A stretch of 64,000 nt of DNA from an uncultured Gammaproteobacteria bacterium (lineage in GTDB: Bacteria > Patescibacteriota > Microgenomatia > CAYXHB01): NCBI GenBank assembly GCA_964561945.1, contig CAZLQM010000001.1:25655-89654 (forward strand). Reading direction: 5' to 3'. Shown here piece by piece: positions 3,497 through 63,782 of this stretch. The stretch's first letter is position 1; every line of letters starts with the position of its first letter. Under the pieces are notes generated by a model. The model did no database searches and was not told where the DNA came from. It saw only the letters and a program-made list of their open reading frames with translations. Both the position numbers and the translations under genes were made by a program.

Positions 3497-3501
3497 TAAA
3501 T

Positions 3502-12455: not shown

Positions 12456-12554
12456 TGATTGATTATAAACTAAGAAAATAATTTAGATTAGTGTGTACAT
12501 CGAGCAAATTATTTATTTGTATTGCGTGTATACAAATGCTACGATGTTGGGTAC

Positions 12555-16619: not shown

Positions 16620-16661
16620 TGGATATTTGTGTGACAGGCGATATGTATATTATAGTAAAAA

Positions 16662-18412: not shown

Positions 18413-18413
18413 A

Positions 18414-19478: not shown

Positions 19479-19499
19479 AAGGTTATGTTACCAGAAACT

Positions 19500-21192: not shown

Positions 21193-21201
21193 GAAGAATT
21201 G

Positions 21202-22098: not shown

Positions 22099-22115
22099 AT
22101 ATATATTTTATCTTA

Positions 22116-25100: not shown

Positions 25101-25163
25101 TTGCCCGGCAAATATAGTAAATAAAAAAGTAAGTAAAAATATTTGTTTTATTTGGTTGGCCAT
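22116..25163 (-). CDS. 1015-aa polytopic membrane protein: signal peptide, ~380-aa extracytoplasmic domain, ~15 TM helices, ~110-aa C-terminal soluble domain
   Basis: Hydrophobicity pattern read by eye; no catalytic motif was identified. Sits inside the glycosylation island. Confidence 0.6.
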   Translation of the reverse strand: MANQIKQIFLLTFLFTIFAGQLSSVQAASKFVSPVYPIRGSDNWTNASSPFSQTQMLANIVTSNQVSATWLMRFDAMLDPQINKLIKSRQPQDEVGVFMEITKSLAGEADVQYDPNSYWYDANAIFLSGYSINERINLIDRTMNKFLTIYGQYPRTVGAWHIDAFSAKYLTDKYGVTGIIICADQYSTDHYQLWGSYWGVPYIPSLQNILVPANTEDSRMPLVVGQWAARDAVNGYGLSVHQSTHSVQANDYMLHSLDINYFKQIASSYLDNDSNQFGFLLIGIENDYDLEKYGPEVANQLTYVSNRAKKQELEVVQFKQFANWYLKKYSTSPSHTISLNNPLNINELAEWKMDSTHRKGLLSVNGQTTIRDLRNYDSTYPEPFIANRNPHSNLLLTIPAQIDTALNISDNLNPPWKSLWPKYDYIDYVIVIGVSLFILIITFRQFLTPFIIIFVSAIWSLVMIRSGQLMNYGLGFWGPNGHDAIWHLSIASSFQKTFSLENPLLANTKLQNYHFFYDALLAFISRITNLSLITTYFHLMPFLISIIIATLLWFFTKQISNNKTAPMFAIFSAFTAGSAGWIFSLINSKSTGGETTFWAQQSISTLINPPFALSLVILLLFLISFNKYIHKPTINLLFLLAIFVGLLAQTKIYSSILVILGLALLSIEELIRTGNITSRFKTRIINHNFAPITKLLILSCTISFIFLFPFININNSSNSFFVWQPFWFITTMLQDNDRFHWINMANAIQAYQTNHNYPKLFLAFGLSTAIFIIGNFWTRVIGILDYIFNSPNKDYVSKLMFYIFIFGILFPLFFIQKGTSWNTIQFMYYSLFISSIWTAIAISKIKFFFLRNAIFILLIIINIPTTYGTLKHYLPSRSPSRIPTEEMHALNFLKKQDTGHVLSYPYQKELKFKYDEPRPLFAYESTAYISAISFQPSVLEDEVNLEILGLDWKTKRNQIMAFYQTKSLSSAQEFIKDNQVMYFYHRADEPFPYMLHELNARLLYDNGLINIYKIH

Positions 25164-26608
25164 ATTGATTTGGTAAATTTAGCAATCAAGTCATTTACTA
25201 AAACAGGAGCCATTAACTTTAGAGCAATAAAATAAATAATAGCGCTGGTTGTAACTGTTAACAATAAATTAACCCAAGATAGAGCCATATAATGACTGAG
25301 TAATACTGCGCATGCTCCCATGATAGTAACGGATAAAAACGGTGGTAAGAGGGCGGTTGTAAAACTAAAATTAACGAATTTTTTGAGAATCAACAAAGGA
25401 ATGATTGAAGCAAAAGAAATTATTCCAACTCCAATGGCGACGCCTTCATAGCCGTACATCCAACCCAAAGGTGCGACAATTAACCAAGTTAAAATAGTCC
25501 ACATGATCATTAGTTTGGTGACTATTTTGATATGGCCAATTGCAGCTAGGGCATTAGTTGCTGGAGTTGACACTGCGGCCCATAGGCTGTTAATAGCATA
25601 AAGATAGAAAAGAAAAATGGCTGGCTCCCATTTATTGTATCTAGGGATTAGCTTAATTAGGACATCAAGAATTGCTGCGGCGCCAACCACGAAGGGAAAT
25701 ACTGAGGCAGCCGAGAAAAAGATCATTTTGGTTATTGCTGATTGTAGCTTGGATTGATTATCTTGAATTTGGGAGATTGCGGGAAAGGTAACACGGGTTA
25801 CGTTGTCTGAAATGAAACGCAGAGGTTTCTGTGACCAAGTTTGAGCCCATCCCAAATATCCTAAACCGGATGGACCTACGACACCACCGAGAATTACATT
25901 AAGCAGTCTGTCTTTGATGGCGGCAATTATTGTATTTAGTTGATATGGAACCCCAAACTTGAGTAGCTTCTTAATGGATGATTTGTCCCAGGCTAAACCG
26001 ATACGCCAAGGAGAAAGTATGTAGATAGTAAATAAGCCAACGACGCCTCGGGCTATAACAGCAAAAGAATAACTGTTGATACCGAATCCCTTGATTGCCA
26101 TTACTACAGCAATCGAATAGAAAATAATGGTTTCGATGGTTTCTACGATTACAAGTTTTTCAAACTTGAGAGATCTCTCGATGAGGACTGAGGGGATGGT
26201 CTTGAGCGATGCTAAGAAAAATCCAAATAGAACCGATGCCCACAATAAGATAGTCTGATTGTCCCAACCATAGACGTGAGCTAAAAGTGGTGAAATGACC
26301 AATCCAGTGATACATAAAGTTCCAAATAATAATTGTTGGATTGTAAAACTAGTTCGTAAATCATTTAGAGTAGGAATGTTTTTTTGCTGGATAAGTGAAG
26401 CTGACAAACCTACGTCAGAAAAATAACTTAGGATGCCTACTAATTCATTCACAAGGAAGAAAATACCAAATTCTTTGGGGGAAAGATATTGAGTTAGAAA
26501 GAAAATACCAACCAAACTAAAGAGTTGCAAGAAACCACTCCTACTGACAAGAACTATCATGCTTCGAGTTACATTGGTACTTATTTCATGATGAGTTTGA
26601 TTAGTCAT
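25148..26608 (-). CDS. wzx: Wzx-type oligosaccharide flippase (polysaccharide biosynthesis protein family)
   Basis: 'FGIFFLVNELVGILSYFSDVGLSASLIQQK' signature and about 12 TM helices. Confidence 0.8.
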   Translation of the reverse strand: MTNQTHHEISTNVTRSMIVLVSRSGFLQLFSLVGIFFLTQYLSPKEFGIFFLVNELVGILSYFSDVGLSASLIQQKNIPTLNDLRTSFTIQQLLFGTLCITGLVISPLLAHVYGWDNQTILLWASVLFGFFLASLKTIPSVLIERSLKFEKLVIVETIETIIFYSIAVVMAIKGFGINSYSFAVIARGVVGLFTIYILSPWRIGLAWDKSSIKKLLKFGVPYQLNTIIAAIKDRLLNVILGGVVGPSGLGYLGWAQTWSQKPLRFISDNVTRVTFPAISQIQDNQSKLQSAITKMIFFSAASVFPFVVGAAAILDVLIKLIPRYNKWEPAIFLFYLYAINSLWAAVSTPATNALAAIGHIKIVTKLMIMWTILTWLIVAPLGWMYGYEGVAIGVGIISFASIIPLLILKKFVNFSFTTALLPPFLSVTIMGACAVLLSHYMALSWVNLLLTVTTSAIIYFIALKLMAPVLVNDLIAKFTKSIWPTK

Positions 26609-26629
26609 GGGTTTGAAATTTGGATGTAA

Positions 26630-28186
26630 CTAAGGACGCGTAACTTGATATAGCATGAGTGATTGATGAGTCCCATCGGGCCTAGTGGCTTTGGGGAAGC
26701 TCTGAACTAGAACGAGATTGGAAGATTGAATATCTTTGATCTTAAGACGTTCGTCATTGAATACAAGATAAACTAAGTTTTCTTGAGTAGCATCAAGGAG
26801 AGATTGCGGAACTTGATCAATGATGAATGAATGACCAATGACAGTAACATTGGGGCGTTTATCAAAATATATTTGCAATCCATCTGGGGTGGTGCCAAAA
26901 AAGCCTTCTGTACCTACGACGATACGATTCGAATGACTTTGGCGGTCGATATAACTAGCTATTTGATCTAAGCCTTGTCCTGCTGTCCATTCTTCTAGGT
27001 ACCCTGATCTTTCGATGCGAGGCAGATTGGCTTGGTCTGGATTTGTAATAATGATTATGGATTGATGTAAGCCATATCCGAAGAGGATAATGAGAAAAAG
27101 TAATTTGAGAAAAAGATTTTTGCGATAATGATAAAAAACCTGTGTAAATCCAATTGAAGCTAAAATTAAGAATGGTGGCACTATAAAAAAGAAGTACCGA
27201 GCGGTTAACCCACGGGCGACAAAAATTTGGATAATAGATGGACCGACTATCCAGAGGAGGAAAAATAAGACTTTGGTTTTTTTTGTTCGAAATAGAAAGA
27301 ATATGCCTAAGGATGAAAATATTAAAACGCCAGGAGTTATCAAATACCAGATAAAACTTACAAAAGCTGAGGCGTTAGTTTGGAAAATGCCAATTGGGTT
27401 AGCTATAATTTCGGAGAATGGGAAACGGTAATCTTGATTACGCAGTGAAATTTGATGGAACTCTGGTCCAAGTCTAAGAACATTGTAAATTGCATAGGCA
27501 ATAACCAAGGTCAGAGACAATAAAATTGCAAATTTCAAATAGTGCCAGCAATTAAAGCGAGGAAGCAAAAGGGGGGCCATAACTCCTAGAAAGATGAAAA
27601 CTATGGCTGGAGATTTGGTAAGGAGTGCAAGTCCAAGCACTCCTCCACTGATTAATGCAGTGTCTAGACGAGTGTATTTGGCTATTAAATATGTAAAAAC
27701 TAACGACCAAATTCCAAACATTAAAAGTAAACTATCTGCCAATGCGTATCTATCAAAAAATAAAGTGTACGGGATAATGGCATATAATAAACCTGTGATC
27801 AAAGAGGTTAGGCGACGCTTGGTGAGTAAATAAGTTAGAATATATAAACCTATTACACTTGAAGTACCTGCAAATATAGAAACTAATCTGCCTGCGTAGA
27901 GAGGGTTGGAAATTAATTTAAGGAAAGGGATAATCAGCCACATAAATAAAGGTTGCTTGCCATCTGTCAAAGGTAAAAAACGCAAAGTGGGCTCGGCACG
28001 CATAACTTGAGCCCAGCGGATATATATAGCTTCGTCAGCAAAGATTGGCCAAATTAGTAAGTTGATAATTCTCAACCCAAAGGTAATTAATACAAGGGAA
28101 ACTATAAGAAGCAGATGTGGTTTGAGTTTGCGCCAAATTGTTAGGGCTTGTTGAGGAGTATCAAACATAGAGACCCTTAAGATCAT
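26630..28186 (-). CDS. GT-C fold glycosyltransferase (ArnT/PMT-like)
   Basis: First-loop 'FADEAIYIRWAQVM' DE motif in a 518-aa multi-TM ORF. Confidence 0.75.
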   Translation of the reverse strand: MILRVSMFDTPQQALTIWRKLKPHLLLIVSLVLITFGLRIINLLIWPIFADEAIYIRWAQVMRAEPTLRFLPLTDGKQPLFMWLIIPFLKLISNPLYAGRLVSIFAGTSSVIGLYILTYLLTKRRLTSLITGLLYAIIPYTLFFDRYALADSLLLMFGIWSLVFTYLIAKYTRLDTALISGGVLGLALLTKSPAIVFIFLGVMAPLLLPRFNCWHYLKFAILLSLTLVIAYAIYNVLRLGPEFHQISLRNQDYRFPFSEIIANPIGIFQTNASAFVSFIWYLITPGVLIFSSLGIFFLFRTKKTKVLFFLLWIVGPSIIQIFVARGLTARYFFFIVPPFLILASIGFTQVFYHYRKNLFLKLLFLIILFGYGLHQSIIIITNPDQANLPRIERSGYLEEWTAGQGLDQIASYIDRQSHSNRIVVGTEGFFGTTPDGLQIYFDKRPNVTVIGHSFIIDQVPQSLLDATQENLVYLVFNDERLKIKDIQSSNLVLVQSFPKATRPDGTHQSLMLYQVTRP

Positions 28187-28922
28187 TTAATCTGACTCTG
28201 AGTATTTGTTTAATCATGTCAAGTGATTCTTGAATAAACTTTTGGGCAGTACGGTCTTTGCTGGTACTAAGGTCACTATCTTCCCATTTCACGGGAACTT
28301 CTTTGATAGAATGTTTGAACTTCTGAGCAAGAAAAAGAAACTCTACATCCCAAGCGGCTACTGTCCACCCTTTAGCAGAATGTGTTTGGTCGAAAATCAT
28401 CATTTTGGAAAAAATATCTTTGGCAATATCAGTTTGAACTAGCTTAAAACCACATTGTGTGTCTTTGATTTGAGAAAGAAGTAGGCTGCGACGAAAAATG
28501 CCGAATAAATTTGAAGCCAGCTTGCGCCAAATAGAAGAGTTTTTGCGCTGGTTACCACGCGATCCGATGACAACAGGAAATCCTGATTCTGCGAATTTGA
28601 TTAATTTATTAACTTGATCAATGGGAGTAGATTGATCCATATCGGTAAATAAGGTGTAGGCGCCTCTAGCATTATGAAGTCCTGCGCGTAAAGCAAAGGC
28701 TTTGCCTCCGTGAGCATTTTTGAGTAAATGGATGTGAGAATTGAGGTGTTTTTGGACATAATCAATGCTTCCATCAGTGCTTTGGTCATCTGAGACAATT
28801 ATTTCGTATGTGAAGTTTTGTTTTGATAAATAATTATCAAGATCTAACAAAGCACCATTATTGAGATTTTGCAACTCGTTGTAGCAAGGAACTACAATTG
28901 ATAAATAAATATTAGAGTTCAT
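28161..28922 (-). CDS. polyprenyl-phosphate glycosyltransferase, GT2 (DPM1/ArnC-like)
   Basis: 'SIVVPCYNE', 'IIVSDDQSTDGS', 'DTQCGFKL' and 'GSRGNQRKNS'. Confidence 0.8.
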   Translation of the reverse strand: MNSNIYLSIVVPCYNELQNLNNGALLDLDNYLSKQNFTYEIIVSDDQSTDGSIDYVQKHLNSHIHLLKNAHGGKAFALRAGLHNARGAYTLFTDMDQSTPIDQVNKLIKFAESGFPVVIGSRGNQRKNSSIWRKLASNLFGIFRRSLLLSQIKDTQCGFKLVQTDIAKDIFSKMMIFDQTHSAKGWTVAAWDVEFLFLAQKFKHSIKEVPVKWEDSDLSTSKDRTAQKFIQESLDMIKQILRVRLNDLKGLYV

Positions 28923-29020: not shown

Positions 29021-30502
29021 ATGAGAACAAACACATCAAAGGCAATTATAATAGGTGCAGGTTTCGGAGGCTTGGCAGCTGCTGCTCTATTGGCTAAAGA
29101 TGGGTACGATGTGGAGGTATTTGAAAAAAATAATCAACCTGGAGGCAGAGCTCAAGTTTGGAAAAAAGATGGTTTTTTGTTTGATATGGGACCTTCGTGG
29201 TATTTGATGCCAGATGTGTTTGAGAAATTCTTCGGTGAGTTTGGACGTAAACCTAGTGATTTTTTTAAGTTGAAAAGACTAGATCCTTCGTATCGGATTT
29301 GGTTTGGGGAAAATGACTATATTGATATGCCCACAGATCTTAGTGAAATTAAGAAAATATTTGCTAAGTTAGAGGTAGATGGAGATAAAAAATTAGAAAA
29401 ATATTTAGCACAAGCCAAGTATCAATATGATGTGGCTATGGATCGTTTTATTTATCGGTCTTATAATTCCTGGAAGGACATTCTAGATAAGCAATTAATG
29501 GTTGAGGGAGCCAAGTTAAATGTATTTGGGAGTATGGGGAAATTGGCAGAAAAGTATTTTGATTCTGAGAAAGCTAGAAAAATATTGCTCTATACAATTG
29601 TTTTCTTAGGTGGATCTCCCAAAGTAACCCCTGCTCTGTACTCAATAATGACACATATCGATTTTTCACTGGGTGTTTGGTATCCAATGGAAGGAATAAA
29701 CAAAGTAGCCTTAGCAATAGAGTCATTAGGAAAAAAGCATGGAGCTAAGTTTCATTATAGTAAGGCTGTCGATGAGATTATAGTAGAGGAAGGGAAAGCC
29801 GTTGGAGTTAGGATTGGTAAAAAAATTAACAAAGCTGACCTTGTAGTGGTCAACGCAGATTATCATTTCGCAGAAACTTGTTTACTTGAAAGTAAATATC
29901 AATCCTACCCAGAGAAATACTGGAAAAAGAAAACTGTGGCTCCTTCGGCATTAATCTTTTATCTCGGTATTAGTAAGAAAATAAAAAATTTGCAACATCA
30001 TACACTTTTTTTTGATGGTGATTGGGAGGCACATTTTGAAAACATCTTTAGTAATCCGTCTTGGCCCCGAAGTGATCCTTCTTTTTATGTCTGTGCTCCA
30101 TCTAAAACTGATAATACTGTAGCCCCAAAGAATATGGAAAATCTATTTGTGTTAATTCCCGTGGCAAGTGGACTTGATGATAATGAAGGCACACGGGAAA
30201 AGTATTTTGAGCAAGTAATTGATAGAATGGAAAAATTAACTAGAGAATCAATAAAGGAACATATAATAGTAAAGCGTTCTTTTGCTCATAAGGATTTTGC
30301 TAAGGAATACAACGCCTACAAAGGAACTGCACTGGGACTAGCGCACACGTTGTCACAAACTGCTTTTTTGAGACCCAAACAAAAGAGTGATAAAGTACAA
30401 AACTTATTTTATACAGGGCAATACACACATCCTGGAATTGGAATGCCTATTACTTTGATTTCTTCATCAATTCTGCATCATACTTTGACTCATGAGAAAT
30501 GA
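29021..30502 (+). CDS. crtI: phytoene desaturase family flavoprotein (CrtI/CrtN-like)
   Basis: 'KAIIIGAGFGGLAAAALLAKDGYDVEVFEKNNQPGGRAQVWKKDGFLFDMGPSWY' in a 493-aa ORF. Confidence 0.8.
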   Translation: MRTNTSKAIIIGAGFGGLAAAALLAKDGYDVEVFEKNNQPGGRAQVWKKDGFLFDMGPSWYLMPDVFEKFFGEFGRKPSDFFKLKRLDPSYRIWFGENDYIDMPTDLSEIKKIFAKLEVDGDKKLEKYLAQAKYQYDVAMDRFIYRSYNSWKDILDKQLMVEGAKLNVFGSMGKLAEKYFDSEKARKILLYTIVFLGGSPKVTPALYSIMTHIDFSLGVWYPMEGINKVALAIESLGKKHGAKFHYSKAVDEIIVEEGKAVGVRIGKKINKADLVVVNADYHFAETCLLESKYQSYPEKYWKKKTVAPSALIFYLGISKKIKNLQHHTLFFDGDWEAHFENIFSNPSWPRSDPSFYVCAPSKTDNTVAPKNMENLFVLIPVASGLDDNEGTREKYFEQVIDRMEKLTRESIKEHIIVKRSFAHKDFAKEYNAYKGTALGLAHTLSQTAFLRPKQKSDKVQNLFYTGQYTHPGIGMPITLISSSILHHTLTHEK

Positions 30503-31310
30503 AGTAAGTTTTTTGGATATTTTCAGGAAAGGAAGTAAAACTTATTTTTATTCCAGTTTGTTCTTTCCTAAGGATGTCTATCGTGAAGTTCAGGTGTTAT
30601 ATGCTTTTGTCAGAACAGCTGATGATTTGGTTGATGGTAGGCAGGCAAATATTGATAAATTTAATCTGTTTTGGGAGAAATATTGGGGAAATGAAGACAA
30701 ACCTAGTGGAGATTTGATCATCGATTATTTTAGGCAATTAGTTAAAAAAAAGAAATTTGAAAAGGATTGGATTTGTGCATTTGAGAAATCTATGCGAATG
30801 GATTTTGGGAAAAATAAATACACTACTTTGGATGAGACTATTGAGTATATGTATGGGTCAGCTGAGGTGATTGGTTTGATGATGTGCAGGATTATAAATA
30901 TAAAAAATGAGGCTTTTCCTTCTGCGCGAGCATTGGGGAGATCAATGCAGTATGCAAATTTTATGCGTGATATTGATGAAGATTTGGGATTGGGTCGAGT
31001 TTACTTTGCAGAGGCTGAAATGAAGAAAGTTGGATTGAAATCATTAAACCATCAAGATGTTTTAAAGAATGAAAAAGGATTTGTTCAGTTTATTAATAAC
31101 CAACAGAAATATTATCTTGAATGGCTCGAAGAAGGACGCTCAGGTTATCAATACTTACCCAAATGGGCGTTGCGGGCAATCAAGACAGCCGAGGAAATGT
31201 ATACTTGGACGGTTAGTGAAATTGCGACAAATCCAATGGTGGTTTATGAGAAAAAAGTTAAACCATCTATTTGGAAAATTATTTCAACGGGGATAAAAAA
31301 TAGTTTATGA
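30492..31310 (+). CDS. crtB: phytoene/squalene synthase family (CrtB/CrtM-like)
   Basis: 'YAFVRTADDLVDG' and 'YANFMRDIDEDLGLGRVYF'. Confidence 0.8.
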   Translation: MRNEVSFLDIFRKGSKTYFYSSLFFPKDVYREVQVLYAFVRTADDLVDGRQANIDKFNLFWEKYWGNEDKPSGDLIIDYFRQLVKKKKFEKDWICAFEKSMRMDFGKNKYTTLDETIEYMYGSAEVIGLMMCRIINIKNEAFPSARALGRSMQYANFMRDIDEDLGLGRVYFAEAEMKKVGLKSLNHQDVLKNEKGFVQFINNQQKYYLEWLEEGRSGYQYLPKWALRAIKTAEEMYTWTVSEIATNPMVVYEKKVKPSIWKIISTGIKNSL

Positions 31311-32146
31311 GAGGAACTTTAAATTTTTTGGTTAAGATTTCTCGACCTAGATTTTGGGTATATTTATTTGGTACGTATTTGGTGGGATATACATTTGGGT
31401 TAGATTCACCAGAAGGTTTTCGCATTCCCATTTTTTGGATTCACTTAATATATTTTATGTGGATGGCAAATTTCTGGTTGTATGGTATCAATGATCTTTA
31501 TGATGAGGACACCGATAAATATAATCTCAAAAAAGGCAGTTATGAAGTTAGATTAGCTCGAGAACGGAAACAAACTGTAATTAAAATAGTTAAATTGATT
31601 GGCATATTTAGTATCGGTTTGATGTTAATGCAAACTGTTGCAGGAGCTCTAATGATTCTGATTTGGGGGATGCTAGGTTGGGCATATAGCAGTCCACCTC
31701 TACGATTTAAAGCAAGGGTAGGATGGGATTTTGCGTCTAATATACTATACGGGATTCCTGGATTACTGGGCTATTGGCAATCAAGTCTGAATTTGCCTGA
31801 TTGGAAAATTATATTAGCAATCTGGCTCTGGTGTGGCGCGATGCATCTTTTTTCCGCAATTCCTGATATAAAGGCAGATAGTCAAGCGGGGTTAGGAACA
31901 ACAGCGGTAAAATTAGGACTAAGGAAATCATTAATTACCTGTCTAAGCCTGTGGAGTTTGGCGGTAGTGCTGGCTGGCTTTGGCTTGGGGTGGTGGTCAA
32001 TGATAGGATTAATTTACCCTGGGATTTGTATTTATTTATTGGTTGGGAAAAAGGAAATTTCTGCGATGTATAAAAATTTACCTGTTGTTAATGCATTGGC
32101 AGGCTTGTGTTTATTTGGATATGCTATTTGGCCATTAATAAATTAG
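31307..32146 (+). CDS. UbiA-family integral membrane prenyltransferase
   Basis: 'NDLYDEDTDKYN' (NDxxDxxxD) and 8-9 TM helices. Overlaps crtB by 4 bp. Confidence 0.75.
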   Translation: MRGTLNFLVKISRPRFWVYLFGTYLVGYTFGLDSPEGFRIPIFWIHLIYFMWMANFWLYGINDLYDEDTDKYNLKKGSYEVRLARERKQTVIKIVKLIGIFSIGLMLMQTVAGALMILIWGMLGWAYSSPPLRFKARVGWDFASNILYGIPGLLGYWQSSLNLPDWKIILAIWLWCGAMHLFSAIPDIKADSQAGLGTTAVKLGLRKSLITCLSLWSLAVVLAGFGLGWWSMIGLIYPGICIYLLVGKKEISAMYKNLPVVNALAGLCLFGYAIWPLIN

Positions 32147-55022: not shown

Positions 55023-56528
55023 ATGTTCAAAAAATCAAGTAGTGCCCACGTTTCTCCAAAGATTCCCATGATCGCAGGATTGCTCTTGTTATTGGCAGGA
55101 GTTGTGGGCGGTGTTTATTTAATCCAAAATCGTCAATCTCCAACAGAAACTCAGGCAGACGTAGGAACGGCTCCAAGTTCGGTCGAGGTGTCGAATGTTA
55201 CAAGTAATTCATTTACCATAAGCTGGGTAACTCAAAATCCGACAAGTGGATTTTTGACCTATGGGACTAGTAGCGAGAAAATTAATAGTGTGGCAAGAGA
55301 TAAACGTGATTTGTTATCGAGCGATTACTTGAAGTATTCGACCCATTATGTCCAAGTTTCAGGTCTTAATCCGGCCACTGAATATTTTTTTATGGTTAAT
55401 TCTGGCAAAACGGCATATCTTACAAACGAAAGCGTTCCGTATACGGTCAAAACTGCCAGTAATTTAGCCGAAGGGTCTTTATCTGCTATTTCGGGAAAAG
55501 TACAAACAAGTGATGGGGGAGTTCTTGAGAATGCAATTGTGTTAATATCAGGTCCTAATTTAAGTACACAATCTGTTTTAACTGACGCAACAGGAGATTG
55601 GTCAATGTCGTTGGGAGGAGCGGTTGATCCGTCGCTGAGTAAAGAAGCTAGTATCAGTCAAAATGACGACGTTACAATAAGAGTGCAAAGTAATCTGGGG
55701 AACTCGACAGCATTGATTTTGGGTCAACAAATTAATGACATACCAACAATAAGTGCTGGTGAGACATTTGATTTTAGAAGTTTGGTTGCCTCATCGACAC
55801 AGAGACCATCAAGTTTTACGTTTATTGACGATCTGTCTGCCCAATCACCAACTGCCTCTCAAACAATTAATATCTTTAATCCTCAAGAAAACGAAGCGCT
55901 AAGCACAACTAAGCCTCTGTTTATGGGAACAGCCCCAGCGGGAAATGAAATTTCAATATCAGTGATCCAAAAACAAACTCAATTAACTGGCGTAGTGATG
56001 AGTGATGAGCGAGGAAATTGGCGTTGGACAAGTGAAGAAGATTTGGCTCTTGGATCTCATGTAGTCAGAGCCAGTTATACTAACGATTCAGGAATTACAT
56101 TTCAAGCTGAGAAAAGATTTAGCATACTCGGCAATGTCAGTACTAATCCGGCTATTGAATCAAGTCCTGGGGGCGAATTAGCTCAAGTTTCTCCTGGTCC
56201 AACCATAATCGCTCAAGTTAGTCTGACGCCAACTCAAGGAGTGCGAGTGTCTCCAACAGTTTCTGTATCAAAAACTCCCGCCCCAACCAGAGTTCTTTCG
56301 CCCACACCAACAGTCACAACCAAACTCACACCAACCGTGACATTGGTTCCTACTAGGATAACCACTCTCGTTCCAACCGTATCTGTGACAAGTGAAGTTA
56401 CTCTAACAGCTTCGCCAACGCCAACTATGGCAACTGAATTACCAGTGGCGGCCACTACCCTCCCCACTTATATAACTGGAATCGTAATTTCACTATTTTT
56501 GGGCGTAGCAGTTCTGTTGTTAATTTGA
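55023..56528 (+). CDS. cell-surface protein: N-terminal TM, FN3-like domain (purple-acid-phosphatase N-terminal type), beta-rich domains, Thr/Pro/Val-rich repetitive linker, C-terminal hydrophobic anchor
   Basis: 'FTISWVTQNPTSGFLTYG...HYVQVSGLNPATEYFFMV'. The linker at residues ~395-475 is made of (S/T)PT(V/L) units, followed by a C-terminal 'LPTYITGIVISLFLGVAVLLLI' helix. Confidence 0.55.
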   Translation: MFKKSSSAHVSPKIPMIAGLLLLLAGVVGGVYLIQNRQSPTETQADVGTAPSSVEVSNVTSNSFTISWVTQNPTSGFLTYGTSSEKINSVARDKRDLLSSDYLKYSTHYVQVSGLNPATEYFFMVNSGKTAYLTNESVPYTVKTASNLAEGSLSAISGKVQTSDGGVLENAIVLISGPNLSTQSVLTDATGDWSMSLGGAVDPSLSKEASISQNDDVTIRVQSNLGNSTALILGQQINDIPTISAGETFDFRSLVASSTQRPSSFTFIDDLSAQSPTASQTINIFNPQENEALSTTKPLFMGTAPAGNEISISVIQKQTQLTGVVMSDERGNWRWTSEEDLALGSHVVRASYTNDSGITFQAEKRFSILGNVSTNPAIESSPGGELAQVSPGPTIIAQVSLTPTQGVRVSPTVSVSKTPAPTRVLSPTPTVTTKLTPTVTLVPTRITTLVPTVSVTSEVTLTASPTPTMATELPVAATTLPTYITGIVISLFLGVAVLLLI

Positions 56529-56551: not shown

Positions 56552-57820
56552 ATGAAATATTTGATCGTAGGGACTGGGTTTACGGGATTGGTAGCGGCTT
56601 TGGATCTGGTGGAAGCAGGCCATGAGGTAGTTATGTTGGAAAAAAATAGTTTTGTGGGGGGATTGGCTGCAGGGTTTAAAGAAACTAAGTGGGAATGGAA
56701 TCTTGAACATCATTATCATCATATTTTTCGAAATGATAAAAGCATAATAAATTTAGCAAATAGATTGAATGTGAAGGTTAAATTTTATAGAGTTAAAACT
56801 AGTTTTTGGGATGGAGAGAAGATCTTCCAGTTTGATTCGGTTAAAAGCGTATTAACTAATCAACAAATATCACTAGTTGATAGAATAAGAACACTGGGAA
56901 CTATGGGTTTTCTTAAAATGATTCCCAACTGGGAGTGGTTTGAAAGAATGACATCTGAGCAGTTGATAAAAATGACGATGGGGAGAAAGGTGTGGGATAA
57001 AATATGGGGGCCATTGTTTCTTGGGAAATTCCATCAATGGACCTCTGTTGTAAATGCAACTTGGTTTTGGGCCAGAATTCATGCCAGAAGCCAAGCGTTA
57101 GGTTACTTTGGAGGTGGTTTTAATAGTTTAGTTAAAGCATTGACTGATAAATTAATTAGTTATGGAGTTAAGATTAATTTGAATGAAAATGTTGAAAAAA
57201 TTAAAATTGTAGACGATAAAGCTTGGGTTAAAACACAGAAGGAAACATACCGCGTGGACAAAGTTTTAGTTACGGGACCAAGTAATGTGGTTAAGAAAAT
57301 TATGCCAGACGAAGAAATAACAAATAAACCGATTCAAAGTCTAGGTGCTATTACAATGATTTTGGAGACTAGAAAAAAGTTTTTGGATGATAATACATAC
57401 TGGCTGAATATCAGCGACTCTAAAGCCCCGTTCTTAGCATTTGTTGAGCATACAAATATGATAGGCAAAGAAAAATATGACAATAAAAACATCTTGTATT
57501 TAGGCAACTATCTACCTAAGGAGCATGCGTATTTTGGAAAATCAGACAAAGACTTATTAAAAATATATGCACCGTATCTAAAGAAAATTAATAGAAAATT
57601 TGATGTAGATGATACAAACAATGTTTGGGTATTTAAGACTGATTATGCTCAAAGTGTGTTTGAAATAAATCATGGCAGAGATGTACCTAAAATGGAAATT
57701 GTTAAAAACAAAATATACTGGTGCGGAATCGAGCATGTTTATCCTTGGGACCGAGGGACTAATTATGCAGTTGAGTGGGGACATAAAGTCGCAAAACTGA
57801 TGATGAACAAGGTAAGATAA
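56552..57820 (+). CDS. FAD/NAD(P)-binding flavoprotein of the amine-oxidase/UDP-galactopyranose mutase (Glf)-like fold
   Basis: Rossmann 'KYLIVGTGFTGLVAALDL...LEKNSFVGG'. 'EHHYHHIFRND' resembles the Glf 'HVYGPHIFHTDN' motif. 422 aa. Confidence 0.5.
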   Translation: MKYLIVGTGFTGLVAALDLVEAGHEVVMLEKNSFVGGLAAGFKETKWEWNLEHHYHHIFRNDKSIINLANRLNVKVKFYRVKTSFWDGEKIFQFDSVKSVLTNQQISLVDRIRTLGTMGFLKMIPNWEWFERMTSEQLIKMTMGRKVWDKIWGPLFLGKFHQWTSVVNATWFWARIHARSQALGYFGGGFNSLVKALTDKLISYGVKINLNENVEKIKIVDDKAWVKTQKETYRVDKVLVTGPSNVVKKIMPDEEITNKPIQSLGAITMILETRKKFLDDNTYWLNISDSKAPFLAFVEHTNMIGKEKYDNKNILYLGNYLPKEHAYFGKSDKDLLKIYAPYLKKINRKFDVDDTNNVWVFKTDYAQSVFEINHGRDVPKMEIVKNKIYWCGIEHVYPWDRGTNYAVEWGHKVAKLMMNKVR

Positions 57821-57826
57821 TAGAGT

Positions 57827-59653
57827 ATGGTTTTGGGTAAAAAACTTAGCGCAGAGAAATGGAAAATATTGTTAGGAATAGTAGTGGTGTTTTTTTGGAT
57901 CATAACTAGATTCGGTTTTTTGAATTGGGGAGCACCTTGGTATTTCCATCCTGACGAACGAAATGTCGCGACTGCTGCCGCGCGGATTTACGATCAAGTT
58001 AATGATGGTGTCGCTGATGCATATAATCCACATTTTTTTGCATACGGAGGGCTTCCAATTTATATCATCTTTGGAATCACCTCTATCGTGACTCACTTCC
58101 GTGATCAAGCTGATCCTTTCGTGGTCGCCATTCTTGTAAGTAGGGCTATGAGTGCTATTTGGATGGTTTTAATTCCAATTATGACATGGAAGCTTGCTTT
58201 GTATTGGGGAAAAGGAGTGGCAAAATATAGTTTTTTGCTGAGTATCTTTTGTGTGGGATATATTCAGTTTGCGCGATTTGGAACTTTCGAGAGTTGGTTG
58301 ACATTTAATTATCTATTGTTACTACATCTAGTAATTAAATTGTATTATAAATGGTCATTACGACTGTGGTTCGGAGTGTGCTTGATTGCTGGAATTGGTG
58401 TAGCAATTAAAATTCCTAGTTTATATTTATTGGGGTTAATTGGAATAATTTGGACATGGAAATTGTTTAAATTATTACGAAGCACGAGTTATTGGAGAAC
58501 AAAATTTATTGTGTTGAGCAATATGGTAATGTTGGGAATAAGTGGATTATTAGTAGTTTATTGTGTATTTATAATAAGTAATCCCTATGCATTTAGTGAA
58601 CGAATTGTCGACGATTTAAATGTAAATTTGCTTAGTTTCGTAATTAGAACTTTAGTGAAGTCTGTTAATTTTGTAACTCAGAATAATTTATTGAAATTGA
58701 GTAATTTGTCAGACCTATTCGGAAGTGAGTTTTTACATTCGATCAATATTGAAAGGTCTATCGCTATAGGGAAGATCGATGTTTTCTATACTCGTCATTT
58801 CAAAGATACGATTGGCGGTTTATATCATATTGAAATGATTTTGCCGTGGATAACCAGCATTCCAATGGTAATACTGTCCATTGGTGGAATAGTGTCTTTG
58901 ACATGGTCAGCATTGAAGAAAAATACACCAAGTGCCCTACTATTGCTGTGGCTGATACTACAGTTAATTTTTATATTTCCACTTTACGTGAAGTGGACAC
59001 GATATATGATCCCTGTTTTACCTGCGATTATAATCGCAGCAAGTGTTGCAATTAATCAGATACTTTGGTTTATTAATAATCTTTGGTCAGACAAAAAGGT
59101 TAAGAAAATTCTGATATACGGAACCATGTTTAGTTTGGGATGGCATCTGATGTATACATTAATGTTTAGTGTAACCCTCACACAGGAAGACACTCGGATT
59201 GAGGCGGCTGAATGGATGAGAAGATCTATAAATAAAAATGTAAATGTTTTATCTGAAGTTTATGATTTGGGGATTTTGCCATTTAATAATGTTGTACCTA
59301 GTTCTCAAATCACCTTATATAATTTTTATGACATGGATAATTCATCGTTGGAAAACATAAGATTACCTAATGAAATTGTTGATGGCTATGATGTGGTTGT
59401 GGTTTTATCTAGAAGAATTTGGAAAAATTCAATTGATAATAAAGAGTACTATCCTAGAGCTGCAAATTTTTACAGTGAGTTGTTAAATGGAAATTTAGGG
59501 TTTATAAAAGTACAGGAATTCAGCAACTATCCACGATTTGGACCTTTAATAATTAATGACGAAATTAATGCTGAAGAGACTTTTAGTGTATTTGACCATC
59601 CGCGAATTCAAATATGGGTTAATCATGATAAATATGACAAAATTATGATATGA
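57827..59653 (+). CDS. GT-C fold glycosyltransferase (ArnT/PMT-like)
   Basis: 'WYFHPDERNVATAAARIYD' first-loop DE motif and a C-terminal soluble domain. 608 aa, multi-TM. Confidence 0.7.
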   Translation: MVLGKKLSAEKWKILLGIVVVFFWIITRFGFLNWGAPWYFHPDERNVATAAARIYDQVNDGVADAYNPHFFAYGGLPIYIIFGITSIVTHFRDQADPFVVAILVSRAMSAIWMVLIPIMTWKLALYWGKGVAKYSFLLSIFCVGYIQFARFGTFESWLTFNYLLLLHLVIKLYYKWSLRLWFGVCLIAGIGVAIKIPSLYLLGLIGIIWTWKLFKLLRSTSYWRTKFIVLSNMVMLGISGLLVVYCVFIISNPYAFSERIVDDLNVNLLSFVIRTLVKSVNFVTQNNLLKLSNLSDLFGSEFLHSINIERSIAIGKIDVFYTRHFKDTIGGLYHIEMILPWITSIPMVILSIGGIVSLTWSALKKNTPSALLLLWLILQLIFIFPLYVKWTRYMIPVLPAIIIAASVAINQILWFINNLWSDKKVKKILIYGTMFSLGWHLMYTLMFSVTLTQEDTRIEAAEWMRRSINKNVNVLSEVYDLGILPFNNVVPSSQITLYNFYDMDNSSLENIRLPNEIVDGYDVVVVLSRRIWKNSIDNKEYYPRAANFYSELLNGNLGFIKVQEFSNYPRFGPLIINDEINAEETFSVFDHPRIQIWVNHDKYDKIMI

Positions 59654-61392
59654 GAAATAAAATTTGGTTTAACATCGGTTTATTGATAGTACTAATCACT
59701 GGTTGGGGTTTGCGCATATGGGGCATTAATTGGGATAGTGGTTATCATTTCCATCCTGACGAACGAAAAATTATTATGGTTGCAAATGAAATCAGATGGG
59801 TTAATCCAATTACAGATTGGGAAACGTTTAGTTCTATAGATTCGGGATTAAATCCGAAATTTTTTGCATATGGTAGTTTTCCTATTTACTTATTATCTTT
59901 TGCCTCTAATACTATCGGAAATGTGCTGGGTGATCGTGGGGTTGCGAGTTATGACGGGATGTTGATGGTGGGGAGATTGTTGTCGGCGATGTTCGATACA
60001 TTGACTATATTAGTTGTGTTTTGGATTGGAAGAAAAATCAGGGATGAAAAATTAGGATTAATAAGTGCGTTTTTGTATGCAATTGCTGTTTTCCCAATTC
60101 AAACAAGTCATTTCTATGCTGTCGATACGTTGCTGAGTTTGTTAATGGCGAGCTTATTGTTTGTAATAATTTCGGTAAAAAAAATCTCGTATAAACAAAT
60201 CATAATTGTTGGAGCATTGATTGGATTAGGGCTGGGAACAAAAGCTAGTGCAGTAATCGGACTTATATTCTGGTTATTGTGGTTAACAGCTCAAATAATA
60301 TCTCCTGATAAATTGAATTTAAATAATAAAAGTAGTTATTGGAAAAGGATTGTGGTAGTTATTAAGTGGGGAACTTTGTCATTAATTATTGCGATCGGAG
60401 TATTAAGCATCGTCCAACCATATATGTGGTATGACAAGGTAGCTTTCTGGGGTGATCTGAGTAGCCAGTCGCGAATGAGATATGATGCTTGGACTTTCCC
60501 ATATACGCGACAATATATTGGGACTAAGCCATATATCTATAATGTCGAACAGATTGTGCGATTTGGATTAGGGATTGGACAAACTGTTTTTGTTTTGTTG
60601 GGTATTGGGGGTTTAGTAAGCATATTGATTAAAAAAAATACAAAGCAATTTGATGTGAGGAGTTTGATATGGGGATGTATTTTGATGCTGGGGTTTGTGG
60701 TTCCATTCGGAATATATAGTGTTAAATTTATGCGATATCTATTGCCAATTTATCCTTGGCTGACAATTCTGGGTGGGGTAGGTATCATTTACGCGACAAA
60801 TCTATTTACTAACGCTAAACGAAATTTCGTATATGTAGGACTGGGAATAATTATGGCGATGACGTTACTGTGGACATGGGGATTTATGAACATTTATAAT
60901 GTAAAAAATACAAGGATTTCAGCCAGTATTTGGATAAATAGAAACTTGAAATCTGGTTCGACATTGGCAATAGAACACTGGGATGACGCAATCCCAGTTC
61001 CCCCTTGGGGAAGTCAATTCCAAGAAGTGACACTTGCGTTATATGAACCAGACAATGAAATGAAATGGCGATTAATTAGTCAACAACTGGCTCAAGCCGA
61101 TGCGATTGTTATTGCAAGCAATAGGCTTTATGCGCCTTTGACGAGGTTGACTGATAAATATCCTGTAGCTAGCGAGTATTATAAAAAATTGTTTAATAAT
61201 GAACTTGGTTTTAAACTCGAATTGAAAGACAGTAATTATCCTAGGATTGGTAATTATGAAATTGCTGATGACGAGGCAGATGAAAGTTTTCATGTTTACG
61301 ATCATCCCAAGATTTTGGTTTATAAAAAGAAAGTTGGATATACAGCTGAACAATACTATGATTTAATTACAAATGGAAATTTGGAAATATGA
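59650..61392 (+). CDS. GT-C fold glycosyltransferase (ArnT/PMT-like), tandem paralog
   Basis: 'YHFHPDERKIIMVANEI' and the same architecture. Overlaps the upstream gene by 4 bp. Confidence 0.7.
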   Translation: MRNKIWFNIGLLIVLITGWGLRIWGINWDSGYHFHPDERKIIMVANEIRWVNPITDWETFSSIDSGLNPKFFAYGSFPIYLLSFASNTIGNVLGDRGVASYDGMLMVGRLLSAMFDTLTILVVFWIGRKIRDEKLGLISAFLYAIAVFPIQTSHFYAVDTLLSLLMASLLFVIISVKKISYKQIIIVGALIGLGLGTKASAVIGLIFWLLWLTAQIISPDKLNLNNKSSYWKRIVVVIKWGTLSLIIAIGVLSIVQPYMWYDKVAFWGDLSSQSRMRYDAWTFPYTRQYIGTKPYIYNVEQIVRFGLGIGQTVFVLLGIGGLVSILIKKNTKQFDVRSLIWGCILMLGFVVPFGIYSVKFMRYLLPIYPWLTILGGVGIIYATNLFTNAKRNFVYVGLGIIMAMTLLWTWGFMNIYNVKNTRISASIWINRNLKSGSTLAIEHWDDAIPVPPWGSQFQEVTLALYEPDNEMKWRLISQQLAQADAIVIASNRLYAPLTRLTDKYPVASEYYKKLFNNELGFKLELKDSNYPRIGNYEIADDEADESFHVYDHPKILVYKKKVGYTAEQYYDLITNGNLEI

Positions 61393-63782
61393 TTAATATT
61401 ATAAATTGGTGGGCAACTTGGTGGTTACTCGGCATAGTATCTTTGCCTGTAACGATTCGATTATTCAAATCGTTGAATGATGAGGGTTATGCAGTGGCGC
61501 GGTTATTGGGTGTATTAGTAATTTCATATGTTGTGTGGTTGTTGGCTTCGATAAAAGTAATGCCTTTTTCGTTAGTCGGCGTTTGGTCTATCTTAATTAT
61601 TTGGACTTTGATAAATGGCTATTTATATAAAATAAATCAGAAAGACGACATAGAAATTATTAAAATTTATTGGTGGAAGTGGATACGTATTGAAATGATT
61701 TTTGTTTTTTTTCTTGCGTTTTGGAGTTTAATCAGAAGTTTTTATCCTGATATTAATGGCTTGGAAAAATTTATGGATTATGGATTTATGAATTCTATAT
61801 TACGGAGTGATTATTTTCCACCTCATGATATGTGGTATGCCGGTGGTTCAATAAACTATTATTACTACGGGCACTATGTTAGTGCCTTGGTTACAAAAAT
61901 ATCTCAGGTTCCTAGTCAAATTAGTTACAACTTGATGATTAGTACTATCTTAGCAAACGCTGCAATTGCTATTTATTCATTGGTTGGTAGCATCGTAGAA
62001 TGGACTTGGGGAGATAAAAAAAATAGTAGTTTGATATGGGTTAAATTCGGTGGAACGTTAGCTGTATTTTTATTATTACTACGAGGAAATTTACATCTGG
62101 GTGCATATGAACTGGGTAAGATGCTAAGTAGCTGTGAAACACGAACTGACGGCACTATGACCAATTGTGTTTCCAAATATAGTGGTATTAACAAAGGATG
62201 GTTCCCTGATGTTTCCAAACCATACTGGTATCCTGATGCTACTCGCTATATCCCCTACACTATCCATGAATTTCCTATATATAGCTTTGTGGTGGCTGAT
62301 TTGCATGCCCATTTAATTAATTTGCCATTTGTACTTTTGTATCTATCGCTTTTGCTTCAATTGATTAAAGAATCGTATACGAAGCTTGGGAAATGGCTTG
62401 TGGCTGGGTGGATATTGGGAATTTTCTATATGACGAATGCATGGGATTGGCCAATTTATATGTTGCTTACCGGCATGTGTTTGTTATATTTGCAGTTTTC
62501 AAATATATTGAAATTCACTTCTAAACAATGGTTATGGATTCAAGGAACTGGATTAACTATATTTGCAGCGCTAGTCGGACTTTGGGGGATTGCTATTAAA
62601 ACAACTCTTTTTTCTAGTGGCAATGATAACTTTGAATGGCCATTGATTATTGCAAGTCTAGTTTTGACAATTATCGGAGTTAGCGTGACTAAACAAATTA
62701 AAATCAAAGACTGGGCAAATGTGAAAGATGTTTTATATGGATTAGTTTTGCCTTGTCTGATTATATTGGGAATATCAATTTTGGTTGCCTTACCTTTTCA
62801 TTTGAAATTCGAACAAATAGCTCAAGGAGTTGGGCTGGTAACAACAAGGTCAGAAATTTCTAAACTATTAACGCTTTGGGGGTGGGATTTATTTACGGGG
62901 TTGATACTTATTGGAATTATGGTGCTTAGTAAGCTCGGTAAAATTAAGCAGATTGATTTTAGCTTGGATGGAATAATGGTAGTTATTTGGTTACTAGGAA
63001 TTATTTTAATAATAATTCCTGAATTTATATATGTTAAAGATATATATATTCAGGAATATCATCGAGCCAATACAATGTTTAAATTAGTTTATCAGTCTTG
63101 GACGTTGTTTTCGATTGTATCTGCTTATACAGTAATTAGACTTATACGATTAACTCTTGGGCGTGTTGGTAATATAATCCGTGTGCCATTAATTATGGTA
63201 ATCATTCTAATGTTGTGGCAAATGGCGAGATATCCTGTAATTGCAATTAACTCTTATTATCCAATGTTTAATTCCATAACAGGTGAATTAAACATTGATA
63301 AAATGCACAATGGTTTGGATGGAGAATTATGGCTAAAAGATCAAAATGCTAATGAATATGCATTACTGAAAAGTCTAAAGAAAATTGAAGGCTCGCCTGT
63401 TATTCTGGAGGCACCGGGAGATAGTTATACAGAGTTTAATCGATTCTCTTCGTATACTGGACTGCCAACCGTTGAGGGCTGGCTGGTGCATGAATGGTTG
63501 TGGCGAGGAAGCTATGATGGCCCTGGGCGGAGAGCCAGCGAAGTGGAACATATTTATACTGCAGCAGATGAAAATTCGGAAAGATCAGTCTACGATGGAC
63601 CGCCAATTCCTAATGTCAAAGAATTAATCAAGAAATATGGGATAAAATATATAATAATAGGAGAGAAAGAGCGTGATAAATATGGAAGAGTTGATGCAAG
63701 ATTGAACGTAGACTTAATAAAAAGTTTGGCCGATGAGATTTTTGTTGCTGGAGATAGTAGATTATATAAAGTTAGGGAGTAA
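61389..63782 (+). CDS. 797-aa polytopic membrane protein with a C-terminal soluble domain, GT-C-like (possibly DUF2298-type)
   Basis: About 15 TM helices and a 'SINYYYYGHYVSA' loop, with a ~170-aa soluble C-terminus. Overlaps the upstream gene by 4 bp. Confidence 0.55.
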   Translation: MINIINWWATWWLLGIVSLPVTIRLFKSLNDEGYAVARLLGVLVISYVVWLLASIKVMPFSLVGVWSILIIWTLINGYLYKINQKDDIEIIKIYWWKWIRIEMIFVFFLAFWSLIRSFYPDINGLEKFMDYGFMNSILRSDYFPPHDMWYAGGSINYYYYGHYVSALVTKISQVPSQISYNLMISTILANAAIAIYSLVGSIVEWTWGDKKNSSLIWVKFGGTLAVFLLLLRGNLHLGAYELGKMLSSCETRTDGTMTNCVSKYSGINKGWFPDVSKPYWYPDATRYIPYTIHEFPIYSFVVADLHAHLINLPFVLLYLSLLLQLIKESYTKLGKWLVAGWILGIFYMTNAWDWPIYMLLTGMCLLYLQFSNILKFTSKQWLWIQGTGLTIFAALVGLWGIAIKTTLFSSGNDNFEWPLIIASLVLTIIGVSVTKQIKIKDWANVKDVLYGLVLPCLIILGISILVALPFHLKFEQIAQGVGLVTTRSEISKLLTLWGWDLFTGLILIGIMVLSKLGKIKQIDFSLDGIMVVIWLLGIILIIIPEFIYVKDIYIQEYHRANTMFKLVYQSWTLFSIVSAYTVIRLIRLTLGRVGNIIRVPLIMVIILMLWQMARYPVIAINSYYPMFNSITGELNIDKMHNGLDGELWLKDQNANEYALLKSLKKIEGSPVILEAPGDSYTEFNRFSSYTGLPTVEGWLVHEWLWRGSYDGPGRRASEVEHIYTAADENSERSVYDGPPIPNVKELIKKYGIKYIIIGEKERDKYGRVDARLNVDLIKSLADEIFVAGDSRLYKVRE

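Follow-up and report, generated by a model that had tools for sequence, protein, structure and literature searches.

We analysed a 64,000-nucleotide stretch of contig CAZLQM010000001.1 (the window), which carries five consecutive open reading frames (ORFs) on the + strand between positions 55023 and 63782 that we suggest form a surface-glycosylation operon. The series opens with SURF (55023–56528, 501 aa), a surface protein and the probable acceptor, followed by FLAVO (56552–57820, 422 aa), a predicted cytoplasmic FAD-binding flavoprotein of the NF005560/PRK07233 family with the fold of amine oxidases, protoporphyrinogen oxidase (PPO), and phytoene desaturase (PDS). Three large polytopic membrane proteins complete it—GTC1 (57827–59653, 608 aa), a predicted GT-C-type glycosyltransferase with a C-terminal soluble domain; GTC2 (59650–61392, 580 aa), a second predicted enzyme of this type and a paralogue of GTC1; and YYY (61389–63782, 797 aa), a DUF2298/Chlor_Arch_YYY protein and probable third GT-C glycosyltransferase. 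An earlier, sequence-only reading had described the last four of these as a Glf-like flavoprotein followed by translationally coupled membrane proteins, and much of that description holds in the ORF list and translations: the coordinates and strand of the four ORFs, the motifs 'HHYHHIFRND', 'FHPDER' (in both middle proteins), and 'YYYYGHY', the paralogy of the middle two proteins (full-length, 25% identity, E 1e-34), and the presence of a Thr/Pro-rich surface protein directly upstream. The 4-bp ATGA overlap that it gave for each pair is present between GTC1 and GTC2 (59650–59653) and between GTC2 and YYY (61389–61392), but FLAVO and GTC1 are instead separated by a 6-nt spacer, the FLAVO stop codon (TAA) ending at 57820 and the GTC1 ATG starting at 57827. 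Because of these overlaps, the 6-nt spacer, and the 23-nt gap between SURF and FLAVO, and since a promoter and terminator scan of the module gave no signal beyond shuffled expectation, the five genes probably form a single transcription unit.

On the 5' side of SURF, the window encodes rpsT, pilN, pilO, and a small single-pass membrane protein, with murJ and lepA further upstream. We asked whether the small protein encoded between pilO and SURF could be a GtrA-type flippase and ruled this out, as it has one transmembrane segment and a Ser/Thr/Pro tail. Homologues are numerous for each of the proteins searched (5959 for FLAVO, 2111 for YYY, and 2092 representatives for GTC1), which excludes chance ORFs, and those with named hosts are assigned to Woese-, Davies-, Blackburn-, Levy-, and Shapirobacteria, suggesting a Patescibacteria host of the Microgenomates type. 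Many records of metagenome-assembled genomes (MAGs) titled 'uncultured Gammaproteobacteria bacterium' (L005, L011, L014, L018–L021, and many more; SRP..._co.., binchicken) show the same synteny, from pilN and pilO through SURF and YYY to the LCP, TIM, UvrD, and FemX genes, as named Microgenomates, and these titles look like placeholder taxonomy.

FLAVO matches the Pfam Amino_oxidase domain (3e-22) and, over residues 1–420, the NF005560/PRK07233 model, annotated only as 'hypothetical protein' (362.4 bits, cutoff 252); its homologue in Thermoclostridium stercorarium reaches 492 bits on the same model. With a GxGxxG Rossmann motif beginning at residue 7 and no signal peptide, the protein is predicted to be cytoplasmic. 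The sequence-only reading had likened it to Glf, the UDP-galactopyranose mutase (UGM), and as a statement about family this did not survive. The GLF domain PF03275 is not among the 11 Pfam matches of FLAVO, while the genuine Glf of locus L055 scores 247.5 bits on that domain; on TIGR00031, the Glf equivalog, FLAVO reaches 24.8 bits against a cutoff of 303.75, with only residues 2–90 (the Rossmann region) aligning; and the best 50 Foldseek matches of its AlphaFold2 model (pLDDT 94) comprise PPO/CgoX, monoamine oxidase (MAO), PDS, and amino-acid oxidases, with UGM not among them. The model superposes on PPO, MAO, and PDS with TM-scores of 0.75–0.82 at 13–20% identity, PDS attaining 0.82. We therefore ruled out membership of FLAVO in the Glf family.

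The motif likeness on which the comparison with Glf had been built (to 'HxYGPHIFHTDN') is real, though not specific. The 'YHHIFRND' of FLAVO aligns with Glf 'YGPHIFHTD' and equally well with 'ETGLHIFFGAY' of rice phytoene desaturase. In profile–profile comparison with hhalign, FLAVO aligns with true Glf over 225 columns covering its first ~250 residues (probability 95.4%, E 1.7e-8), placing the invariant R179 opposite the arginine of Glf 'PIR', but it aligns more strongly with the CrtI encoded in the same window (98.1%, E 8e-14). Since the motif fits PDS equally and the CrtI profile match is the stronger, the resemblance to Glf appears to be a property of the superfamily. The classification that the earlier reading had set against its own, as HemY/protoporphyrinogen oxidase or a CrtI-like enzyme, is half right: fold and profile do lie closer to PPO and CrtI than to Glf, but FLAVO stays below the equivalog cutoffs of PPO (NF008843, 22 bits against 406), crtI_fam (39 against 238), HpnE (56 against 283), and PDS (33 against 569) while exceeding that of NF005560. 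By these scores it belongs to a family of its own, the unnamed NF005560, and is an equivalog of neither HemY nor CrtI. Residues invariant across phyla include Y55, H56, H57, F59, D62, K159, W171, W173, R179, D400, R401, and G402, and the family has its own invariant motifs, YHHIFxxD, WxWxxxxxR, and YPWDRG.

The assignment of the three membrane proteins to the GT-C type was borne out by profile matches for the first two, and a structural model makes it probable for the third. GTC2 matches Pfam PMT_2 directly (35 bits, cutoff 26.1); GTC1 of the window has no direct Pfam match, and among 30 representatives of its family 25 match PMT_2, seven PMT, four TMEM260-like, and one Glyco_transf_22. A joint profile of GTC1 and GTC2 built from 34 sequences finds ArnT (5ezm, 4e-5), archaeal AglB (4e-3), STT3 (0.015–0.05), and, weakly, ALG9. 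We thus predict that both are PMT_2/ArnT-like GT-C proteins; neither matches PF02366 PMT or any ArnT/Pmt NCBIfam model, that is, GT39 or GT83 proper. Within the family, the P-D-E residues of 'FHPDE' do not vary; they lie in the first loop, after the first hydrophobic segment behind a Lys-rich N-terminus, so that by the positive-inside rule this loop would face the outside. A phmmer match of GTC2 to Fusexin1 (E 0.007) was set aside as spurious, reflecting soluble-domain composition with nothing else in its support.

YYY is a clear member of DUF2298 (PF10060, 3.3e-102) and of the Chlor_Arch_YYY family (TIGR03662, 482.5 bits, cutoff 300.25), with N156, Y157, Y158, and G161 invariant in a YYYxG motif. 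Searching the DUF2298 profile against PDB sequences found nothing real. The AlphaFold2 model (pLDDT 83.7) gave six significant Foldseek matches, all of them GT-C structures—the C-mannosyltransferase DPY19 (7zli), AglB (5gmy, 7e9s, and 3waj), and, twice, the arabinosyltransferase AftA (8if8)—with E-values from 3e-7 to 3e-4, the next match standing at E 0.06. YYY is thus a probable third GT-C glycosyltransferase, as judged from a predicted structure. A literature search turned up essentially nothing on either DUF2298 or PRK07233/NF005560.

SURF combines an N-terminal membrane or signal segment, two Pfam domains (Pur_ac_phosph_N/fn3 and the Ig-like Big_13), a stalk rich in Thr and Pro, and a hydrophobic anchor at the C-terminus. 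We surveyed 80 genome loci anchored on DUF2298 and found SURF homologues directly 5' of the module in 32 of them; at about three quarters of their length, these proteins have an 80-aa stretch of 35–65% threonine plus proline, against a background over 80 aa with a median of 16% and a 95th percentile of 35%. In most of the homologues the stalk is followed by a PxTG-like motif, a transmembrane segment, and a basic tail, making up a sortase-type sorting signal; in the SURF of the window, the TP-rich stalk and the hydrophobic end are present, the motif is degenerate, and the basic tail is absent. A small membrane-anchored protein elsewhere in the window (12522–13121, +) has a C-terminal part that by eye resembles the fn3/'purple acid phosphatase N'-type domain with which SURF begins.

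Across the DUF2298-anchored loci, gene order is conserved in a way that supports the broader idea of the sequence-only reading, a conserved glycan locus beside a Thr/Pro-rich surface protein. The Microgenomates consensus runs, on one strand, pilN, pilO, the small gene, SURF, FLAVO, GTC1, GTC2, an optional extra GT-C gene, an optional gene for an epimerase of the short-chain dehydrogenase/reductase (SDR) type or for a GT4, a gene for a HAD-like protein, and YYY, followed on the 3' side by LCP (LytR-CpsA-Psr) and TIM genes on the opposite strand and then UvrD and FemX genes on the same strand. The module of the window is a compact form of this arrangement from which the SDR/GT4 and HAD-like genes are missing. 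FLAVO is found in 38 of the 80 loci, and in 32 of these 38 its same-strand downstream neighbour is of GT-C type. The SDR epimerase (or GT4 in its place) and then the HAD-like gene lie just 5' of DUF2298 in many sister loci; the HAD-like label of this 189-aa protein rests only on an invariant DxD...S...K...DDD pattern, as it has no Pfam, NCBIfam, or PDB match. The slot 3' of YYY is occupied by the opposite-strand LCP gene in most Microgenomates loci, and in one sister contig, past the point at which the window ends, a 7TM_transglut gene (PF14402; L001, 3939–4787) lies directly 3' of YYY. An apparent FLAVO-GTC1 fusion (L038, 3693–6575) proved to be an artefact, the scaffold containing a stretch of N that is read as X on translation.

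Sister loci also carry genes for furanose donors in slots equivalent to that of FLAVO, either a UbiA of the phosphoribosyltransferase type or Glf together with a small GT2. In seven loci, of Shapirobacteria or Woesebacteria type where the record names an organism, a UbiA of ~315 aa occupies the FLAVO slot, and the UbiA proteins of sister loci score 211–215 bits on NF008978 (decaprenyl-phosphate phosphoribosyltransferase; cutoff 207), those of this type being found in L021, L026, L042, L043, L050–L052, L069, and L099. We considered whether FLAVO and UbiA are strict alternatives and ruled this out, since the two are adjacent in L021 and in the metagenome locus L099, both of which have the order FLAVO, UbiA, GTC1. 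In the Lachnospiraceae, three Anaerocolumna loci and one Mobilitalea locus have an authentic Glf and a GT2 of 235–245 aa (ArnC/PgfS/PpgS type) directly 5' of DUF2298, and FLAVO itself holds that position in one Oscillospiraceae and one Synergistaceae contig. A different arrangement is seen in Blautia and relatives (L057, L060, L061, L068, and L075), where two tandem DUF2298-type genes lie behind a gene of ~235–258 aa and neither a flavoprotein nor Glf nor UbiA is encoded within 10 kb.

Outside Patescibacteria, FLAVO recurs in compact Clostridial operons. Thermoclostridium stercorarium and a relative have a divergent DUF2298 gene followed by genes for GtrA, a DUF2298-like protein of 747 aa, FLAVO, and a PgfS/ArnC-like GT2; two further loci run from a membrane protein of ~440 aa (preceded in L087 only by a mutarotase-like gene) through a PMT-family GT-C and GtrA to FLAVO and GT2; and in Acetivibrio saccincola, GtrA, a 415-aa protein, and FLAVO follow one another with stop and start overlapping. 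The GT2 beside FLAVO in Clostridia is nearest to PgfS, with 254–311 bits against an equivalog cutoff of 500. In three loci (L085, 12282–13346, −; L088; L089), a gene for a geranylgeranyl-reductase-like flavoprotein (NF008519, 411 bits; TIGR02032, 128 bits) is convergent with the GtrA-FLAVO-GT2 operon. Cellulosome proteins of Clostridia may carry galactofuranose O-glycans; a literature search gave no paper in support of this, and we did not use the point as evidence.

A second scan, of 80 metagenome loci anchored on FLAVO, recovered the SURF-FLAVO-GT-C arrangement again, along with rows of three or four GT-C genes that have FLAVO as their last member, and GT-C genes flank FLAVO in many of these loci. 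In ~19 of the 80, a stand-alone LPG_synthase_TM gene (PF03706, MprF-flippase-like) lies directly or one gene 5' of FLAVO (L120, L121, L124, L129, L137, L139, L142, L155, L157, L160, L162, L165, L167, and others), the ends of the two genes often overlapping or nearly so, and Wzx-type genes flank FLAVO in L117 and L148. We asked whether a 235-aa protein, encoded between FLAVO and the flippase-like gene, could be a GT2 and ruled this out, as it is a response regulator. Thus FLAVO is linked across phyla to the same kinds of genes, and what the lineages have in common are GT-C enzymes, flippase-type proteins for lipid-linked sugars, and synthases of polyprenyl-phosphate sugars. In two loci (L104, 8375–9925; L125, 8313–9893), a fusion of VKOR with a dihydroorotate-dehydrogenase-like domain is encoded directly 3' of FLAVO; this could be an electron-transfer partner of FLAVO or reflect mere synteny.

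The window contains further glycan and isoprenoid genes away from the module. On the − strand, 15837–28922 is by eye a dense second glycan locus with six GT2 genes, including an ArnC-like one that was also scanned against family models, a GT4 gene, a 1015-aa protein whose N-terminal part is large and soluble and which has many transmembrane segments, a Wzx-like flippase (25148–26608), and an ArnT-like GT-C gene; on the + strand, 1949–5145 encodes a 515-aa multi-pass protein of GT-C appearance and then a 547-aa cellulose-synthase-like membrane GT2, both again recognised by eye. A carotenoid-type trio (29021–32146, +) consists of CrtI, a CrtB/HpnD-like squalene/phytoene synthase, and a UbiA prenyltransferase, which is unusual for a Patescibacteria-like organism with a presumably reduced genome. 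This CrtI scores 701 bits (cutoff 640) on NF058655, 'bifunctional phytoene desaturase/3,4-desaturase', and the UbiA (31307–32146) is of a different family from that of the sister loci (NF009516, 256 bits).

Several characterised systems offer points of comparison. The Pgf system of Streptococcus mutans, made up of the GT-A enzyme PgfS, the epimerase PgfE, and the GT-C proteins PgfM1 and PgfM2, O-glycosylates Ser/Thr-rich regions of the wall-anchored adhesins encoded alongside it (PMC12041528), and streptococcal GtrB/PgtC2 systems glycosylate Ser/Thr-rich regions of wall-anchored and membrane proteins extracellularly (PMC12041528, PMC5856776). Like Pgf, the module pairs a putative sugar-tailoring enzyme with several GT-C proteins and would act outside the cell on a wall-anchored neighbour; unlike Pgf, its GT-C proteins are PMT_2-like or DUF2298 rather than YfhO-type, the candidate tailoring enzyme is an amine-oxidase-fold flavoprotein rather than an SDR epimerase, no GT2 is encoded in the window module, and glycosylation of SURF is a prediction by analogy. 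In common with GtrABC systems, the Clostridial operons have a GtrA-family gene and a GtrB-like GT2, with FLAVO between the two and a GT-C gene alongside; what differs is the flavin-dependent fourth component, GT-C partners of DUF2298 or PMT type, and, in the window module, the missing GtrA and GtrB.

The three-component system for pentofuranose transfer combines PPPRS/UbiA, a HAD phosphatase, a flippase, a GT-C enzyme of family GT136, and optional SDR or DprE1/E2 epimerases (Kelly et al. 2024, PMC11127046). Sister loci resemble this decaprenyl-phosphate-arabinose (DPA)-type pathway in clustering a UbiA above the NF008978 cutoff, a HAD-like protein, an SDR epimerase, and several GT-C enzymes, and the pairing of a flavoenzyme with an SDR recalls DprE1/DprE2; the differences are that the window itself has no UbiA, HAD, or SDR gene of this kind, that no MATE or SMR flippase was seen, and that the GT-C families of the module differ from GT136, Emb, and Aft in sequence. 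DprE1 is also an enzyme of the VAO fold, as against the amine-oxidase fold of FLAVO. With Glf, FLAVO has in common the FAD-binding superfamily, an N-terminal Rossmann fold, and an 'HIF' motif that PDS has as well, and a true Glf takes the equivalent operon position in Lachnospiraceae; it differs in domain, score, and nearest structures, as described above. With PPO, PDS, and MAO it has in common the overall fold and the Pfam domain, but not the invariant motifs, the genomic context, or a score above any equivalog cutoff. The analogy of the sequence-only reading with a 'mycobacterial Glf plus GT-C kind' of module is imprecise, as it merges two pathways—mycobacterial galactan is made by cytoplasmic GT2 enzymes from UDP-galactofuranose (UDP-Galf), and only arabinan uses GT-C enzymes with a lipid-linked donor.

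Taken together, these observations lead us to favour, with reasonable though far from full confidence, the interpretation of the module as a surface-glycosylation operon that works on the three-component (Gtr/Pgf/DPA-type) principle with polyprenyl-phosphate-linked sugars. In such a pathway, a sugar would be loaded onto polyprenyl phosphate at the cytoplasmic face; FLAVO, as a fourth component in the cytoplasm, would tailor the lipid-linked donor or its immediate precursor; the donor would be flipped across the membrane; and GTC1, GTC2, and YYY would transfer the sugar or sugars on the outer side. We infer that the acceptor is most likely the Thr/Pro stalk of SURF, a wall polymer also being possible; the probable role of SURF follows from its synteny within the phylum and from the analogy with the Pgf and GtrB/PgtC2 systems. 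As to the reaction of FLAVO, we judge sugar oxidation or isomerisation most likely, in a DprE1- or Glf-like role, with redox chemistry on the isoprenoid chain as the alternative. A DprE1-like role would fit a context in which FLAVO adjoins the phosphoribosyltransferase-type UbiA, often has SDR and HAD-like proteins as partners, and is tightly paired with flippase genes. Such oxidation is chemically plausible because secondary alcohols are oxidised by flavoproteins of a related branch, that of DAO, glycerol-3-phosphate oxidase being an example; against it, a GT2 but no SDR is encoded in the Firmicutes operons.

More tentatively, and as a possibility that we hold well short of probable, NF005560/PRK07233 may be an unrecognised class of enzymes that tailor polyprenyl-phosphate sugars, within a four-component pathway (synthase, flavoenzyme, flippase, and GT-C) present in Patescibacteria, Clostridia, and Synergistaceae. 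DUF2298 would then be a GT-C enzyme for furanose donors, FLAVO a non-homologous counterpart of DprE1 or Glf, and the Patescibacteria version would attach O-glycans to the Thr/Pro stalk of a protein that is anchored by sortase and encoded beside type IV pilus genes.

A number of observations weigh against a glycosylation operon. Donor synthesis is unaccounted for locally: the 64-kb window has no homologue of the UbiA/DPPRS, HAD-like, or SDR proteins of the sister loci, the module has no GT2 and no flippase of GtrA or other type, and the sole ArnC-like GT2 of the window (28161–28922) overlaps an ArnT-like GT-C gene of its own (26630–28186). The TM-scores of the YYY model against GT-C structures are low (0.31–0.41), and the idea that DUF2298 is a distant paralogue of GTC1 and GTC2 had to be dropped, as hhalign gave a non-significant probability of 2.4%. 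The link to SURF comes solely from synteny in one phylum, which is weak evidence of function, and ~1/4 of the FLAVO-anchored metagenome loci are without a recognised glycosylation neighbour. The amine-oxidase fold is also best known for dehydrogenation of C–N and C–C bonds and not for sugar chemistry. The whole finding is hypothesis-generating, based as it is entirely on comparative genomics and predicted structures.

The other explanations concern the role of FLAVO. Were it a UDP-galactopyranose mutase or a ring-contracting equivalent, with Galf polymerised by the GT-C enzymes into a galactofuranan-type glycan, the alignment of the invariant 'YHHIFxxD' with the Glf motif, the hhalign match over 225 columns, and the placement of R179 opposite the 'PIR' arginine would all find an explanation, as would the parallel between Glf and GT2 before DUF2298 in Anaerocolumna and Mobilitalea and FLAVO directly before GT2 in Clostridia; such an enzyme would need no redox partner, which suits minimal operons. 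We nevertheless consider a mutase unlikely, given the missing GLF domain, the TIGR00031 score, the nearest structures, the stronger likeness to CrtI, and the motif common to PDS; moreover, FLAVO directly adjoins a UbiA of the phosphoribosyltransferase type, an enzyme that already yields a furanose. The likeness to isoprenoid-chain enzymes points elsewhere, to an action on the lipid, with FLAVO a desaturase or saturase of polyprenyl or polyprenyl phosphate that might, for example, provide a dolichol-like carrier for the GT-C enzymes. The TM-score of 0.82 with PDS and the NCBIfam matches to HpnE, CrtI, and PDS fit this explanation, and RetSat, a related enzyme, saturates an allylic double bond. 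The association of FLAVO with GT-C and flippase genes whichever donor gene is present (UbiA or GT2) would also point to the lipid as the shared moiety, and the geranylgeranyl-reductase-like flavoprotein adjoins the Clostridial operon in three loci. Yet many of the invariant residues are charged or aromatic (K159, R179, H56, H57, D62, and several W and Y), better suited to a phosphate or sugar site than to a hydrocarbon tunnel, no conserved partner that would supply reductant was seen, and DUF2298 loci with Glf or UbiA manage without FLAVO, so that we rate a lipid-directed role as quite improbable.

The last alternative takes FLAVO out of the pathway altogether, as a housekeeping oxidoreductase (HemY/PPO, CgoX, or a carotenoid desaturase) that adjoins the GT-C genes by mere synteny, the module then not being one functional unit. 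JGI annotation labels FLAVO homologues 'protoporphyrinogen oxidase', the top Foldseek matches are PPO/CgoX, and the quarter of FLAVO-anchored loci without obvious glycan neighbours would be expected. This explanation strikes us as very hard to sustain: the PPO, CrtI, and HpnE scores are far below their cutoffs, a bona fide CrtI is already encoded in the window, and FLAVO is linked repeatedly, with translational coupling, to GT-C, GtrA, and GT2 genes in Patescibacteria, Clostridia, and Synergistaceae.

The proposed glycosylation system follows a logic already familiar from Gtr, Pgf, and DPA-type pathways. Apparently undescribed are the NF005560 flavoprotein as a recurrent fourth component, a functional context for DUF2298, and the interchange of Glf plus GT2, phosphoribosyltransferase-type UbiA, and FLAVO beside DUF2298. 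Two large families without assigned function, DUF2298/Chlor_Arch_YYY and NF005560/PRK07233, thereby gain a candidate role in extracytoplasmic glycosylation with lipid-linked donors, and the interchange of genes in one slot suggests a use of furanose donors, or of donors tailored in some other way, well beyond the Actinobacteria, with Patescibacteria and their reduced genomes among the users. Since cultured organisms carry these genes—Thermoclostridium stercorarium, Acetivibrio, and Anaerocolumna—the hypothesis is open to genetic tests. Patescibacteria depend on contact with a host, and their attachment may involve a stalk protein of this kind, anchored in the wall, glycosylated, and encoded next to the pilus genes.

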